This document shows positions 17,338 to 58,615 of a stretch of DNA of 64,000 nucleotides, piece by piece (position 1 is the first letter of the stretch; the number at the start of each line of letters is the position of its first letter). The position numbers were made by a program, and so were the translations under genes. Source of the stretch: a virus (taxonomy: Duplodnaviria > Heunggongvirae > Uroviricota > Caudoviricetes); IMG/VR virus record IMGVR_UViG_3300026302_000005, positions 209,301-273,300 of that record, one strand, 5' to 3'. Below the pieces are notes generated by a model that was not told the origin of the DNA, did not search any database, and saw nothing but the letters and a program-made list of their open reading frames with translations.

Positions 17338-17681
17338 GCTGCCCGCCGTGCATGCAGGGTCACGTAGAGACCGGTCTGAGCCTCGAACAGGTCCTTGAGC
17401 ATGTCGCAGTAGATGCCTTCGTGCTTGCTGCATTCGGCGAACTCATAGGTCTTGCGGTTGAACCGCAGGAACTCGACCGTGTAGGTATCCGAAGGGTCCA
17501 GTGTGATCCGGACGTGGGTGCAGCGGTTCTTCAACGGAATCTGGGCCGACGCCGACACCTGCATGGACAGCATATTGTCACCACCAACCAGGTTGCGGGC
17601 CCCGGTCAGGGCCAGGAATTGACGGCCACCCAGTTGACGAAGAATTTCGGTTGCGACTTCCATTGCCATGATCGTCTCCAT
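17334..17681 (-). CDS. Conserved phage hypothetical protein
   Basis: ILRQLGGRQFLALTGA...DTYTV motif. Confidence 0.7.
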   Translation of the reverse strand: METIMAMEVATEILRQLGGRQFLALTGARNLVGGDNMLSMQVSASAQIPLKNRCTHVRITLDPSDTYTVEFLRFNRKTYEFAECSKHEGIYCDMLKDLFEAQTGLYVTLHARRAA

Positions 17682-17726
17682 TTGCTGTTGACCCTGTATA
17701 GCAGGATGCAACGGAGAAGTCAATCA

Positions 17727-18038
17727 TCAATCGTAGTAGGTCTCTCGTTCGGATGGACTCAGGTCGGCCAGGGTGAGATAGTCGTGCTCGGTCCACCCGG
17801 CTCGATCTATACCATTACCGCAACCAACATAATTCCCGTCGGCATCAAAGCCGGAATACCCATACCAGTCGTATCCATCTTCGTCATAGTCACCGAACAT
17901 GGTTTTTTCATCATAGACGATACCGGCGTCATGAAGCTCTTGCGTCCATGGTTCCGGCTCTTGTCCATAACAGTTGAATCGGTATTCATACCCATCCGGT
18001 CTGTGCTGATAGGCAAGGCTGTATTTTCCACGACTCAT
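17727..18038 (-). CDS. Acidic Tyr/Asp-rich hypothetical protein
   Basis: GYDWYGYSGFD..G..DRAG repeats. Confidence 0.7.
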   Translation of the reverse strand: MSRGKYSLAYQHRPDGYEYRFNCYGQEPEPWTQELHDAGIVYDEKTMFGDYDEDGYDWYGYSGFDADGNYVGCGNGIDRAGWTEHDYLTLADLSPSERETYYD

Positions 18039-18054
18039 GATGACCTCATTGTGT

Positions 18055-18225
18055 TGGCACGACAGGCGGGATTCGAACCCCCGGAAACGCCTCTAGGAAG
18101 GCTTGGCCGGTCTTTACGCTACCTTCCACCCAACTACTTGCTCAGACCCCTAGTAGGTCTACACGTCAAGCCCTGGCCCTCACGAGTCCCAGAAGTGGCT
18201 GCTCTATCCAACGAGCTACTGTCGA
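18055..18225 (-). ncRNA. tRNA-Arg-like RNA with an approx. 93-nt insertion in the anticodon arm
   Basis: Acceptor CGACAG/CTGTCG plus G-CCA, D-arm GCTC-GTTGGAT-AGAGC, T-loop TTCGAAT; 171 nt in total. Confidence 0.65.
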
Positions 18226-18228
18226 ACT

Positions 18229-18302
18229 TGGTAGTCCCACCAGGAATCGAACCTGAGTAAAACGCTCATCAGGCGCTTGCTCTACCACTGAGCTATGGGA
18301 CC
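18229..18302 (-). tRNA. tRNA-Ile(GAU), variant loop CU-GAU-GA
   Basis: Cloverleaf; CCA encoded. Confidence 0.85.
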
Positions 18303-18310
18303 GAAATCCA

Positions 18311-18409
18311 TCACGGATTGTTTCTGCCGAACATGCTGGTCTTCTTGAACTCGTCCATTCCCACCTGCCGGATTGCCTGTAGAAATGCCTGATACAGAGC
18401 GTCTTTCAT
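18311..18409 (-). CDS. Small ORF, 32 aa, inside the tRNA cluster (MKDALYQAF...)
   Basis: GAGGA SD; hand translation. Confidence 0.5.
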   Translation of the reverse strand: MKDALYQAFLQAIRQVGMDEFKKTSMFGRNNP

Positions 18410-18423
18410 GTTCGTCCTCGCTT

Positions 18424-18506
18424 TGGAGAACCGGTGGGGAGTCGAACCCCTTGACCATGGATTAAAAGCCCATTGCCAGTCCACACCGACTTTCGTCTAC
18501 CGGTCC
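18424..18506 (-). tRNA. Atypical tRNA-Lys(UUU)
   Basis: Acceptor GGACCGG/CCGGTTC, T-loop TTCGACT, enlarged D region, 8-nt anticodon loop CTTTTAAT. Confidence 0.65.
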
Positions 18507-18511
18507 AATTT

Positions 18512-18586
18512 TGGTAGTCCCAGATGGTCTCGAACCATCGACCCCAGTCTTATCAGGACTGTGCTCTACCCCTGAGCTATGGGACT
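18512..18586 (-). tRNA. tRNA-Ile(GAU)
   Basis: Canonical cloverleaf, loop CT-GAT-AA, CCA. Confidence 0.92.
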
Positions 18587-18596
18587 ATAAAGTGCT

Positions 18597-18671
18597 TGGT
18601 GAACCGGGAGAATTTTGAAATCTCGACCTTGGGTTTAAGAGACCCCTGCTCTGCCTCTGAGCTACCGGTCC
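18597..18671 (-). tRNA. tRNA-Lys(CUU)
   Basis: Loop CT-CTT-AA, CCA; T-arm GAGAT-TTCAAAA-TTCTC is slightly unusual. Confidence 0.85.
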
Positions 18672-18880
18672 ACGAAGCACTCTACTTGTATATCACCTCG
18701 GCGTAGATGCGTTGGTAATACTCATCTTCTTCACGCTCCCCGAGTTTTCGGATCAATCCCTGGTGGGTTTTCAACCACTTTGGGAAATCCTCATTCCGAG
18801 GGTCTTCATACATTCGCCGATACAGATCGACGATGTGGTTCAGGCGTTATGCGTGGTCAATTCGTTATCCTCCAGAAGTT

Positions 18881-18956
18881 TGGTGTCCCCAGCAGGATTC
18901 GAACCTGCGACCTTCGGTTTCGTAGACCGACGCTCTATCCGCTGAGCTATGGGGAC
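18881..18956 (-). tRNA. tRNA-Arg(ACG)
   Basis: Canonical; GGATA D-loop; loop CT-ACG-AA; CCA. Confidence 0.95.
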
Positions 18957-18966
18957 AATTTGATTT

Positions 18967-19042
18967 TGGAGCCCCTGGCAGGAATCGAACCCGCGACCTG
19001 ATCGTTCGAAGCGACCCGCTCTATCCACTGAGCTACAGAGGC
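18967..19042 (-). tRNA. tRNA-Arg(UCG)
   Basis: Canonical; loop CT-TCG-AA; CCA. Confidence 0.93.
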
Positions 19043-19121
19043 ATGTTGGTTTGGAACTGTGTTGAGGGTGTATCACACACGGGTTCCGGAGGCTTGTGGC
19101 TCTCCGGATAAGAGAGCAGCA

Positions 19122-19169
19122 TCAAGCCTTGGATGTAATCCGGCGCTTTCGTTTGTGCTGCATAGCCAT
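19122..19169 (-). CDS. Leader peptide MAMQHKRKRRITSKA of the Arg/Lys/Ile tRNA operon
   Basis: AAGGA SD 8 nt upstream; codon run AAA CGA AAG CGC CGG ATT. Confidence 0.75.
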   Translation of the reverse strand: MAMQHKRKRRITSKA

Positions 19170-19213
19170 GGTGATGGTCCTTCGGTTGACGGGTGATTCC
19201 GTCCTTGCAACTG

Positions 19214-19242
19214 TATTTAGCGTAGACTGCTCGATCTGTCAA
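19214..19242 (-). promoter_or_regulatory. Promoter of the Arg/Lys/Ile tRNA operon
   Basis: TTGACA-N17-TAAATA. Confidence 0.8.
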
Positions 19243-19298
19243 CACCCAATCGGAAAAAACTTTCAGCCCTACCTCTCGGTGCTCATAACCAGGCTGGA

Positions 19299-20000
19299 TC
19301 ACACTATGGCACCGTGGAACACCTCGTCGTAGGTTTGCACCATGGCATCCAACAGCATCCTCGCGGCAGCAGCCTCGTCCCACTCTGGGTAGAACTGTGA
19401 GAGAGGTATCAGATCGGGTATCATTCCTATATGCCGGAAGAAGCTATCAAGCTGATTGTAGTGCAGATCGTGACGATCACTAGATGGGAAGTAGGACCGA
19501 AGCAGCAGAAGCTGATGATGTGTCCGAGCCACATACATAGTGCGTTCCATATTCGGGACCAGGTGGGTAGGCCATTCGATTTCATCCCGGGGTTGATCCG
19601 GTGGTGTATACGACGGCATCTGGTGTTTCCTGGTCTCTGCAAACACCATCACGCTTTTGAGTGTGTCCAACGGATTACGATGAACAAATATGGGTTGGTA
19701 TTTTTTGCTTTGAATGAATGCAGCCAGATACGGGTATAGCCACGTCTGGTTTGTTTGACGAACTGTGATTTTATGGGGGTGCCTCAGACCATCCTCGTTG
19801 GTCTTGTTCCACTTTGCCTCGGTCCACTCCAGAAATGCAGCCGGAGAACTATCATCAGCTTCTGCAAACAATTCACCCTGATACAACCCACCAATAGCCC
19901 GAGCTATGGTGGTGACTAGAACTGTAGTTCCAGATCGACCCGTGCCAATTATGATGTAGTCCTGAGATGGATCATACCACGAAAAGTTATCGGAAAACAT
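19299..20000 (-). CDS. Sulfotransferase-family protein
   Basis: IIGTGRSGTT (5'-PSB loop) and VHRNPLDTLKS (3'-PB motif). Confidence 0.75.
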   Translation of the reverse strand: MFSDNFSWYDPSQDYIIIGTGRSGTTVLVTTIARAIGGLYQGELFAEADDSSPAAFLEWTEAKWNKTNEDGLRHPHKITVRQTNQTWLYPYLAAFIQSKKYQPIFVHRNPLDTLKSVMVFAETRKHQMPSYTPPDQPRDEIEWPTHLVPNMERTMYVARTHHQLLLLRSYFPSSDRHDLHYNQLDSFFRHIGMIPDLIPLSQFYPEWDEAAAARMLLDAMVQTYDEVFHGAIV

Positions 20001-20026
20001 AATTCACCATCACCCGCATGCGCCCC

Positions 20027-20635
20027 TCAGGTCCACAAAGACTTGCGAAGCTTTACAATCTCCAATATAGCCGCATCGCGGCGGAGATCAATCTCTGCAC
20101 TGATAGCCATGGCCTGCTCATACAGGGGTTTCTGATGTGGTGGGCGAACAATCTGATGCACCACCGCGTTGTTCGGTCCAACCTCAACCTTGCGGGTTCT
20201 CGGAACATCCTTATTGGCGTCCCGCCATTGGTTCAGCAGATCAGCCTTTCGAGCCTCCATCTCAGGTTCACCCCGAGTGAACCATTCATAAAGCTCGATG
20301 ACCTTTTCGGTAGTTTCGATCTGCGGTCGAACATCCGTCAGGTCTTCTTCCCACGAAGCACGGATGCCCACCAGATACGCATGGAGTTGAATCAATCCGC
20401 CCATTTCGTCTTCTACGTATCGACGGAGAAGCTTGATCAATGCGGCTTCCATGATCGCATCGATGTCGTAGTATGCGGGTTTCAGATCGGTCCGGATGAT
20501 GTGGTATTGATGTCGTGGCATCAGGCGATACACCACCGACCATGAGAGGTCGTTGGCTCGACGAACAGCTTTGCGAAGCCACTTAGGCCCCCGCTGTGGC
20601 CATTCCAAATACCGCTGGAGCCACGAAAGAATCAC
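20027..20635 (-). CDS. Conserved phage hypothetical protein, 202 aa
   Basis: Coupled ORF ending L..I.K.R..LWT. Confidence 0.75.
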   Translation of the reverse strand: MILSWLQRYLEWPQRGPKWLRKAVRRANDLSWSVVYRLMPRHQYHIIRTDLKPAYYDIDAIMEAALIKLLRRYVEDEMGGLIQLHAYLVGIRASWEEDLTDVRPQIETTEKVIELYEWFTRGEPEMEARKADLLNQWRDANKDVPRTRKVEVGPNNAVVHQIVRPPHQKPLYEQAMAISAEIDLRRDAAILEIVKLRKSLWT

Positions 20636-26325: not shown

Positions 26326-26338
26326 GATGCAAGGGTAT

Positions 26339-26680
26339 TTAGGCTTCTTCGGTGCCTTTGTCAACACCAATGTATTCGGGCCAGTCCGAAAAGTCCCCGA
26401 CATCCCAATCGCGGATGAAATACACCACCGTGTGATCATCTTCCAGTGGATCATCCGCCAGCTTGAGGGCAAACCGAAATGCCCGCAGTGGATCGCAAGG
26501 ATCGGTCTCCATGGCCGCGATATCCACCACCCCAACGAGTTCATCGGTCGAACCGGGTTCCAGCCATTGGGTGTAGCCATTCTCAATGGCCTTGTCCATG
26601 GACGCAGCATGGATGTAGGTATGATCGATCTTGCCGTTTTTCCGGATCGATACCCGATATTGCTTGAACTCACCAGCCAT
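26339..26680 (-). CDS. Hypothetical protein, 113 aa
   Basis: GGAGG SD; coupled. Confidence 0.75.
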   Translation of the reverse strand: MAGEFKQYRVSIRKNGKIDHTYIHAASMDKAIENGYTQWLEPGSTDELVGVVDIAAMETDPCDPLRAFRFALKLADDPLEDDHTVVYFIRDWDVGDFSDWPEYIGVDKGTEEA

Positions 26681-45175: not shown

Positions 45176-45204
45176 TATTTAGAGCAACCCTTCTTGACTG
45201 TCAA
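45176..45204 (-). promoter_or_regulatory. tRNA promoter
   Basis: TTGACA-N17-TAAATA. Confidence 0.75.
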
Positions 45205-46010: not shown

Positions 46011-46039
46011 TATTTAGAGGATCACGCCGATCCTGTCAA
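46011..46039 (-). promoter_or_regulatory. Promoter of the Pro/Trp tRNA cluster
   Basis: TTGACA-N17-TAAATA. Confidence 0.75.
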
Positions 46040-46643: not shown

Positions 46644-46760
46644 AAACATGTTCATCAAGACCATCCCATTGTCAGAGGGAGGTAGGTGACGGGCAAGTGA
46701 ATGGCGTTGGGGTTTCACTGTGTGCAATACAATAACCCAGTGCCTTCGGCCCGTCTCGAA
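46644..46760 (-). ncRNA. Structured leader or ncRNA (element B) between promoter and tRNA-Asp pair
   Basis: GACGGGC/GCCCGTC helix; motif shared with element A. Confidence 0.5.
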
Positions 46761-46762
46761 TG

Positions 46763-46791
46763 TATTTAGGGCATCGTTTGTGATTCGTCAA
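46763..46791 (-). promoter_or_regulatory. Promoter of the Asp tRNA unit
   Basis: TTGACG-N17-TAAATA. Confidence 0.75.
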
Positions 46792-53644: not shown

Positions 53645-53647
53645 AGA

Positions 53648-53675
53648 AACGAAAAAGCCGCCCCGGGGGACGGCT
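53648..53675 (-). terminator. Intrinsic (attenuator) terminator upstream of the tRNA-Gln genes
   Basis: AGCCGTCC-cccg-GGGCGGCT followed by TTTTCGTTT. Confidence 0.85.
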
Positions 53676-53703
53676 GTGAGGGATCGATCAGATAAGCCTT
53701 TGC

Positions 53704-53745
53704 TTAACCGCCGTATCCCTCACGATGTTGTTGCTGCTTGCGCAT
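53704..53745 (-). CDS. Attenuator leader peptide MRKQQQHREGYGG
   Basis: AGGGA SD 8 nt upstream; CAG CAA CAA; overlaps alternative helices. Confidence 0.85.
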   Translation of the reverse strand: MRKQQQHREGYGG

Positions 53746-53785
53746 GATCGAATTCCCTATGAGCGTGATTCGCTCTGTCACAACC

Positions 53786-53814
53786 TATTTAGTCCAAGTC
53801 CTCTGATTTGTCAA
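53786..53814 (-). promoter_or_regulatory. Promoter of the tRNA-Gln operon
   Basis: TTGACA-N17-TAAATA. Confidence 0.8.
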
Positions 53815-58528: not shown

Positions 58529-58615
58529 TTACTTCGCGGCTATCGCGGCATCAAGCTCGGCCAGCACAGCAGCCAGCGGGCGAACCACGACGATCTTGGT
58601 GTCTTTGCGAGCCAT
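58529..58615 (-). CDS. 28-aa leader ORF with a single ATA codon, ending 5 nt before tRNA(CAU)
   Basis: AAGGA SD; MARKDTKIVVVRPLAAVLAELDAAIAAK. Confidence 0.65.
   Translation of the reverse strand: MARKDTKIVVVRPLAAVLAELDAAIAAK

Follow-up and report, generated by a model that had tools for sequence, protein, structure and literature searches.

A codon-matched leader peptide upstream of an Arg/Lys/Ile tRNA array in an uncultured jumbo phage as a candidate sensor of tRNA supply

We describe a short leader peptide gene that is located upstream of an array of transfer RNA (tRNA) genes for arginine, lysine and isoleucine in the genome of an uncultured jumbo phage. The leader lies within a stretch of 64,000 nucleotides (nt), in the following called the window, which comprises bases 209301-273300 of a virus record of 375,937 base pairs (bp). 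Six consecutive codons of the leader peptide are all read by tRNAs encoded downstream, and the last codons belong to RNA helices for which an alternative, mutually exclusive fold is predicted. We consider it probable that this leader acts as a ribosome-operated sensor of the Arg, Lys and Ile tRNA supply, which would tune the phage's own Arg/Lys/Ile tRNA array. A translated, codon-matched leader embedded in mutually exclusive helices had been proposed in an earlier note on the same DNA. This proposal is supported by parallel units in the same genome, by conservation in related phages, by covariation and by modelling.

The leader is found on the minus strand. It is headed by the promoter TTGACA-N17-TAAATA (19214-19242), in which the -35 element TTGACA (19242-19237) and the -10 element TAAATA (19219-19214) are separated by a 17-nt spacer. 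A Shine-Dalgarno (SD) sequence AAGGA (19178-19182) is positioned 8 nt ahead of the ATG of an open reading frame (ORF) of 15 codons (19122-19169), which encodes MAMQHKRKRRITSKA and ends 79 nt ahead of the first tRNA. Codons 6-11 form the control run AAA CGA AAG CGC CGG ATT (K R K R R I; 19137-19154), and all six are read by the downstream tRNAs. The earlier note had already pointed to this SD-led ORF and to its six consecutive codons listing the tRNAs of the array, and both are present. Altogether, the array tRNAs read eight codons. Maximal runs of at least six such codons were counted in all six frames of the whole genome; only 6 were found in the entire 376 kb, with 0.0014 expected per leader-length stretch. 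Furthermore, 7 of the 14 codons in the leader belong to the set of the array, compared to 0-1 of 14 for the sets of other tRNA clusters. The control codons are cognate to the array and enriched beyond chance.

The array on the minus strand starts with tRNA-Arg(UCG) (18967-19042), tRNA-Arg(ACG) (18881-18956), tRNA-Lys(CUU) (18597-18671) and tRNA-Ile(GAU) (18512-18586), and a second copy of tRNA-Ile(GAU) is located at 18229-18302 (all assigned by ARAGORN and Rfam). Between both tRNA-Ile genes lies a tRNA-Lys(UUU)-like gene (18427-18506) with an 8-nt insertion in the D-region, which was missed by ARAGORN and reached 34 bits with Rfam (gathering score 29). The insertion was judged by alignment against the normal Lys-UUU genes of the related phages L013 and L002 introduced below; on these three counts the window gene is aberrant and not clearly intact. 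Describing the downstream genes as intact tRNA species, as had been done before, was thus right about the presence of the array and overstated for Lys-UUU.

Two side observations concern the same array. A tRNA-like gene with the anticodon loop CUUCUGG (Arg-UCU-like) is split by an insertion of ~95 nt after the anticodon (18055-18222, minus strand; 18776-18940 in L013 and 3218-3388 in L002). It is kept in all three phages, is called by neither ARAGORN nor Rfam and may be an intron-bearing tRNA. In addition, a small ORF (18282-18458, minus strand) is found between the Lys-UUU-like gene and the second tRNA-Ile. Its counterpart in L013 (18397-18519) shares the motif FLQAI..VG.D.FK.TS.F, and this conservation indicates a protein gene embedded in the tRNA array.

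The genome has a G+C content of ~53% and carries 47 tRNA genes (ARAGORN) as well as a transfer-messenger RNA, nearly all of them on the minus strand and grouped by amino acid. Its nearest cultured phages are Xanthomonas XaC1, Ralstonia RsoM2USA and the RaK2 group, with a DNA polymerase identity of only ~33%. Judged by this distance, the source is an uncultured jumbo phage without close named relatives. Sequences for comparison were obtained only by protein look-ups in Logan, ENA and JGI assemblies and by a walk along one JGI contig. For the Arg/Lys/Ile leader the comparison comprises three sequences: the window, L002 and L013. L002 is a 6.1-kb Logan contig that was found via the 233-amino-acid protein upstream of the leader (one homologue, 46% identity). 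L013, which was reached by the contig walk, is a 204.5-kb JGI contig syntenic with the window, sharing the order Met, Gln, Asp/Pro, helicase, DNA polymerase, Thr and then Arg/Lys/Ile; the flanking protein on the Gln side has an identity of only 34% to the window counterpart. Further sequences from relatives carry the leader of a Phe cluster (L005 and L006) or of a Gln cluster (L007 and L010, the latter from JGI). Near and distant DNA searches of GenBank phages gave matches to tRNAs only and no homologous leader, and scans of IMG/VR and JGI with the flanking protein, its alignment and conserved 23-32-mers of the leader found no relatives.

The promoter of the leader belongs to a class that is tied to tRNA genes. 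The exact motif TTGAC-N(17-19)-TAAATA occurs in 16 copies in the 376 kb, and all 16 are located 8-210 nt upstream of a tRNA gene; by our own estimate ~0.5 copies would be expected from base composition. Within the window the copies are found at 19214-19242, 26336-26364, 45176-45204, 46011-46039, 46763-46791 and 53786-53814. The same motif also heads the homologous leaders in L002, L013, L005, L007 and L010. Since all copies precede tRNA genes, the promoter at 19242-19214 starts the leader of a dedicated tRNA transcription unit. Confinement of the class to tRNA units suggests a separately regulated tRNA regulon. As a side observation, a tRNA with the anticodon CUA (an amber suppressor; genome 301027-301103, minus strand, outside the window) has a promoter of its own, TTGACT-N17-TATGTA, 10 nt upstream.

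We inspected the region upstream of every tRNA cluster in the genome. Most tRNA promoters are located 8-82 nt from the tRNA, and six leaders have a length of 119-210 nt. Four of these six long leaders contain an SD-led short ORF that is spelled in the codons of its own cluster. The Gln unit (53645-53814 of the window, minus strand) encodes MRKQQQHREGYGG (53745-53704) with the codons CAG CAA CAA ahead of the tRNAs Gln-CUG, UUG and UUG. The Glu unit (L004:2648-2886, i.e. genome 8648-8886, plus strand) encodes MMNKCEEQRRGTE with two GAA and one GAG ahead of Glu-UUC, CUC and UUC. A third unit (L003:7422-7630, i.e. genome 284422-284630, minus strand) serves Phe, Tyr, Asn, His, Leu (five anticodons) and Thr-CGU and is called the Phe unit in the following; its leader MKETTMLHHFYLNLTERAAV contains TTG, CTC and CTG (three Leu codons) and ACG, matching the anticodons CAA, GAG, CAG and CGU. 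Each of the four leaders is enriched for the codons of its own cluster only, and the four chance expectations multiply to ~3e-9.

These sister units also carry a recognizable output. Clear intrinsic terminators are found directly ahead of the first tRNA in the Gln and Glu units, and in the Phe unit a weaker hairpin with one C·A mismatch is followed by a U-tract. In the Gln unit a protector helix GUGAGGGAU/AUCCCUCAC precedes the terminator, which ends with its U-tract 10 nt before the three tRNA-Gln genes. The sister-unit terminators covary between phages: L007 and L010 have the same Gln leader peptide as the window, and L010 has four synonymous changes together with a different, covarying terminator. 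In L005 and L006 the Phe-cluster leader reads MLQHLFYNLTNMVGRT and has a strong terminator. A strict one-to-one count of control codons and tRNA genes had to be rejected, as L007 keeps CAG CAA CAA with only two tRNA-Gln genes. The Glu leader additionally contains a tRNA-like element with an anticodon-like UCU between promoter and leader ORF, which we note as a side observation.

The Arg/Lys/Ile leader was found in both available relatives with the same type of codon run, such that it is neither absent nor codon-unrelated in homologous operons. In L002 the ORF encodes MAMQIIKRRITSKA (2090-2134) behind the same promoter, with the run ATC ATT AAA CGC CGG ATT ahead of the array Arg-CCG, Arg-UCG, Lys-CUU, Ile-GAU, Lys-UUU, Ile-GAU. 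In L013 it encodes MALLLKRKRRITSTV with the run AAA CGG AAA CGC CGG ATT, and the array is that of the window (Arg-UCG, Arg-ACG, Lys-CUU, Ile-GAU, Lys-UUU, Ile-GAU). The control run thus has six codons within the Ile/Lys/Arg set in all three phages, and between L013 and the window only synonymous, in-set changes occur inside it. The SD sequences of the relatives are found at the same distance (GGGA in L002, AAGGA in L013), with the common context GCCATCATGGC. Between start site and SD, the window leader forms a 5' hairpin GACGG-AATCAC-CCGTC (19188-19203, minus strand). Similar hairpins with a GAATC loop also open the Gln and Phe leaders, and the Gln copy covaries in L010. In the three-way alignment the hairpin is deleted from the Arg leaders of L002 and L013, and it is therefore not essential to the Arg/Lys/Ile unit.

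One could explain the ORF as the gene of an independently acting small basic peptide, or as a generic upstream ORF that keeps the leader translated, with the codon match being incidental. In agreement with this, all three phages keep the C-terminal RRITS at the amino-acid level, and the genome of the window phage contains a leader ORF that behaves as a conserved small protein: the 28-codon ORF ahead of tRNA(CAU) (58529-58615, minus strand) has a peptide conserved in L010 (998-1087), where both start with MARKDTKIVV. A lone ATA codon in this tRNA(CAU) leader was considered as a sensor and is not supported, the relative L010 having ATT at conserved peptide sequence; this ORF thus resembles the gene of a small protein more than a leader that lists codons. 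For the Arg/Lys/Ile leader, however, in L002 IIK takes the place of HKRK. The exchange of two basic residues for Ile is a poor, non-conservative substitution for a peptide, yet it stays inside the codon set of the array. Moreover, the window and L002 share an identical 30-nt stretch around the stop codon at a flanking-protein identity of only 46%, which is indicative of a constraint at the RNA level. Also, the four parallel units each match their own cluster. An independent peptide function or a generic upstream ORF is thus improbable.

The stop codon of the leader ORF is part of a set of helices that we call State I. Its first domain (19090-19129, minus strand) consists of an outer helix AGGCTTG (19129-19123)/CAAGCCT (19096-19090), which spans the last codons and the stop of the ORF, and an enclosed inner hairpin GCTCTC (19117-19112)/GAGAGC (19104-19099). 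It is followed by hairpin H3 (GGAAC...GTTCC; 19053-19087, minus strand), which forms in State I only and ends 10 nt ahead of tRNA-Arg in the window and 8-10 nt ahead across the three phages. On the three-way alignment all 48 of 48 cells of outer helix, inner hairpin and H3 are paired, compared to 28-62% in slid controls, and each helix contains one compensatory change (C-G to U-A, U-A to C-G, and in H3 C-G to G-C). In each of the three phages, local folding gives State I as the minimum-energy structure. The enclosing helix and inner hairpin had been drawn before from the window, and the comparison bears them out.

The alternative State II domain (19076-19112, minus strand) consists of TCCGGAG (19108-19102)/CTCCGGA (19091-19085) and a flanking helix CTTAT/GTGTG. 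It takes the 3' strands of the inner and outer helices as well as the base of H3 and therefore excludes State I. The stem, likewise proposed earlier, is present, and 92.6% of the State II cells are paired across the three sequences; we regard State II as compatible with the data rather than demonstrated. A further pairing that had been suggested, CCGGAU with AUCCGG, exists in the window (19143-19138 with 19109-19104) and is lost in L002 and L013. The dependence of the fold on the ribosome position was modelled with folds restricted to the RNA downstream of the ribosome, whose leading edge was set to the A site + 13 nt. In this model State I is retained in all three phages for every position of the ribosome on the control codons, and in L002 and L013 the flip to State II occurs at the first codon past the run. 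In State II H3 is lost and the last 32 nt are more exposed, with a mean unpaired probability of 0.70-0.93 compared to 0.56-0.66 before the flip. The model thus predicts mutually exclusive structures that are chosen by the ribosome position, with a flip in all three phages.

As short ORFs and short helices occur frequently in any sequence of 170 nt, one may ask whether those found here arose by chance in an ordinary pre-tRNA leader. The codon-run statistics given above, the conservation in two distant relatives, the compensatory changes in the State I helices and the parallel codon-matched units, both in sister clusters and in relatives, argue against this, such that a chance origin is exceedingly improbable.

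For the sensor that we favour, the following sequence of events is envisaged. The dedicated tRNA promoter would produce a transcript of ~165 nt ahead of the first tRNA, on which a ribosome loads at AAGGA-N8-AUG and translates the 15 codons. Pausing of the ribosome at one of the six control codons would leave the end of the ORF free to pair downstream into the outer helix with its inner hairpin, and H3 would form just before tRNA-Arg (State I, ON). With fast decoding the ribosome would reach the last codons and the stop and mask the 5' strands of both helices. The released 3' strands could then form the State II stem, by which H3 would be blocked and ~32 nt of C-rich, G-poor RNA would become single-stranded (OFF). 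The OFF state would most likely act by Rho-dependent termination at this unmasked tail. Phage tRNAs made in the ON state would relieve the pause, which provides a negative feedback. Of this scheme, the ORF, its codon match and conservation, the State I helices and the missing U-tract can be read from the compared sequences.

For the output of the switch, the sequence ahead of the array is of central importance. No terminator-like site was found on the minus strand within 17500-20500, and the conserved hairpins of the window, L002 and L013 all lack a subsequent U-tract, which excludes intrinsic termination as the output. The tail between H3 and the array (19043-19074, minus strand) comprises 32 nt with 12 C and 2 G, and the last 29 nt ahead of tRNA-Arg contain 12 C and 1 G. 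Both the absent U-tract and this composition agree with the earlier description. In all three phages the last 32 nt have a C/G ratio of 3.3-6.0, which is within the top 0.2-1.4% of the 32-nt stretches of the genome, and this holds at diverged sequence. An output via Rho can on this basis be put forward tentatively, at clearly less than even weight.

Alternatively, the same sensor could act on RNA processing or stability, such that efficient maturation of the pre-tRNA, or its protection, would depend on H3 in State I and the State II transcript would be poorly matured or degraded. This would be in agreement with the missing of a recognizable terminator in three lineages and with the compensatory change in H3. 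State I moreover imitates the layout of the ORF-less tRNA promoters in the same genome (Ser-UGA, Ala-GGC, Cys and Leu-UAG), where a stable hairpin and a short spacer are followed by the tRNA. On the other hand, RNase P normally cuts off 5' leaders regardless of the RNA further upstream, and the sister units work through plain terminators. Misfolding of tRNA-Arg by pairing with the free tail was also considered; it was rejected, as the complementarity between tail and tRNA-Arg gives duplex energies no better than those of shuffled tails. Overall, we regard an output via processing or stability as rather unlikely.

Other leaders of the genome show how the RNA ahead of tRNAs is arranged. Mid-length tRNA leaders are fully structured hairpins, which fits an avoidance of naked RNA ahead of tRNAs. 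As a side observation, the leaders of the Asp and Ala-UGC tRNA units (46644-46763 of the window and genome 316782-316864, both minus strand) contain a common ORF-less structured RNA closed by GACGGGC/GCCCGUC with folding energies of -37 and -24 kcal/mol, which possibly represents another type of regulatory leader.

The sign of the switch was approached through the sister units. When complete leaders were folded at equilibrium with the ribosome footprint masked, the Gln and Glu terminators persisted in every case, and this approach was dropped as a test. Instead, only the RNA made before the 3' arm of the terminator was folded, and the probability was determined that the 5' arm is already paired before the 3' arm is made. 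For the Gln unit in three phages this probability was 0.4-0.8 with the ribosome on or just after the control codons and 0.04-0.39 at or near the stop. For the Phe unit the corresponding values were 0.5 and 0.15-0.3 in its own genome and 0.87 and 0.2-0.4 in L005. For the Glu unit we obtained 0.46 on the second Glu codon, a peak of 0.67-0.86 on the next five codons and 0.40 at or near the stop. In this modelling the sister units show the classical sign, i.e. a pause leads to read-through, and by analogy we infer that State I of the Arg/Lys/Ile unit would be the ON state. With the opposite sign, a paused ribosome (State I, H3) would lower read-through and fast translation would raise it, which results in a positive feedback on the tRNA supply. 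Such behaviour could be expected from H3 being the only stable hairpin directly ahead of the tRNA and forming on pausing. However, H3 has no U-tract, those sister units that end in true terminators follow the classical sign, and the ORF-less tRNA units carry a similar hairpin constitutively. We consider the opposite sign very improbable.

Several points weigh against a sensor of the proposed kind. Only three sequences support the structure, and State II has no compensatory change. In the window the flip is predicted four codons past the run and not directly after it. Equilibrium folding of the full leader separates the two states poorly, and the model hinges on the assumed +13-nt footprint. 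In L002 the codon CGC has no tRNA passing the thresholds. For a Rho loading site, a C-rich tail of only ~32 nt is short, and the C/G ratio amounts to only 1.4-2.0 when 78 nt are considered. Finally, a polybasic peptide could slow ribosomes whatever the tRNA supply. Weighed together with the evidence above, we still hold the ribosome-operated sensor of Arg, Lys and Ile tRNA supply to be the probable function of the leader.

In a wider sense, the phage may possess a whole regulon of tRNA-pool sensors with one promoter class and with codon-matched leaders at some tRNA blocks. The Arg/Lys/Ile unit would be the terminator-less version, which masks and unmasks a Rho loading site, and a shortage, e.g. 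by host anticodon nucleases acting on Lys or Arg tRNAs, would be answered by transcribing exactly the matching replacement tRNAs. This wider picture is possible and is offered as a tentative one. In such a circuit the regulated product is the sensed molecule, which would make the simplest possible homeostat for a tRNA pool. What purpose phage tRNAs serve has long been an open question, on which such a circuit has a bearing. Recent studies show that phage tRNAs can replace host tRNAs destroyed by defence nucleases (PMC10264068, PMC11555353, PMC11464382). A demand-driven switch would fit this role of replacement. The terminator-less version is kept in three lineages and would show the same sensor coupled to a second kind of output. 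The units are short and modular and can easily be tested with reporters.

A search of the literature found no account of leader-peptide control of tRNA genes, and the paper on XacN1, a tRNA-rich jumbo phage, mentions neither promoters nor leaders. Several known systems provide a comparison. Leader-peptide attenuation of amino-acid operons is textbook knowledge, and multivalent attenuators are known from enterobacteria, such as ilvL of ilvGMEDA (Ile/Leu/Val) and thrL (Thr/Ile). Like these, the phage unit has a short SD-led ORF in the 5' leader with contiguous control codons for several amino acids; the final codons of this ORF take part in mutually exclusive helices, and the ribosome position, here by modelling, chooses the fold. 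Unlike in ilvL and thrL, the targets are tRNAs and not biosynthetic enzymes, so that the product would directly relieve the sensed shortage, and the Arg/Lys/Ile unit is without the hairpin and U-tract terminator that its sister units have. In pheMST, a leader peptide with Phe codons controls phenylalanyl-tRNA synthetase by means of an intrinsic terminator. As proposed here for the phage, that leader peptide reads the availability of charged tRNA and controls a component of translation for the same amino acid. The target in the phage is, however, tRNA genes rather than a synthetase, and several amino acids would be read at once. T-box riboswitches work without an ORF through direct binding of uncharged tRNA. 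Also in these, a leader RNA couples translation-related genes to the state of a specific tRNA; in the phage region 17500-20000 no T-box or other Rfam cis-regulatory family was detected by cmscan at E-values up to 1, with tRNAs and chance-level matches only.

Regarding the output, the closest parallels are Rho attenuators that depend on an upstream ORF, i.e. mgtL-mgtA and corL-corA of Salmonella and tnaC-tnaAB and speFL of E. coli (PMC12360218). In these, translation of the short ORF remodels the leader or shields RNA, by which a Rho loading site is masked or unmasked, and no intrinsic terminator is needed (PMC12360218). The predicted unpairing of the C-rich, G-poor tail in State II would follow the logic of mgtL-mgtA and corL-corA, with Rho dependence being putative here. 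In contrast to the mgtL type, the tail is short (~32 nt), the signal would be the tRNA supply read through six mixed codons instead of Mg2+/proline, tryptophan or ornithine, and the target is a tRNA array. The known mechanism to which the phage leader is to be compared is thus ribosome-mediated attenuation, with tRNA genes as a new target and, in the Arg/Lys/Ile unit, without the terminator that defines the family.

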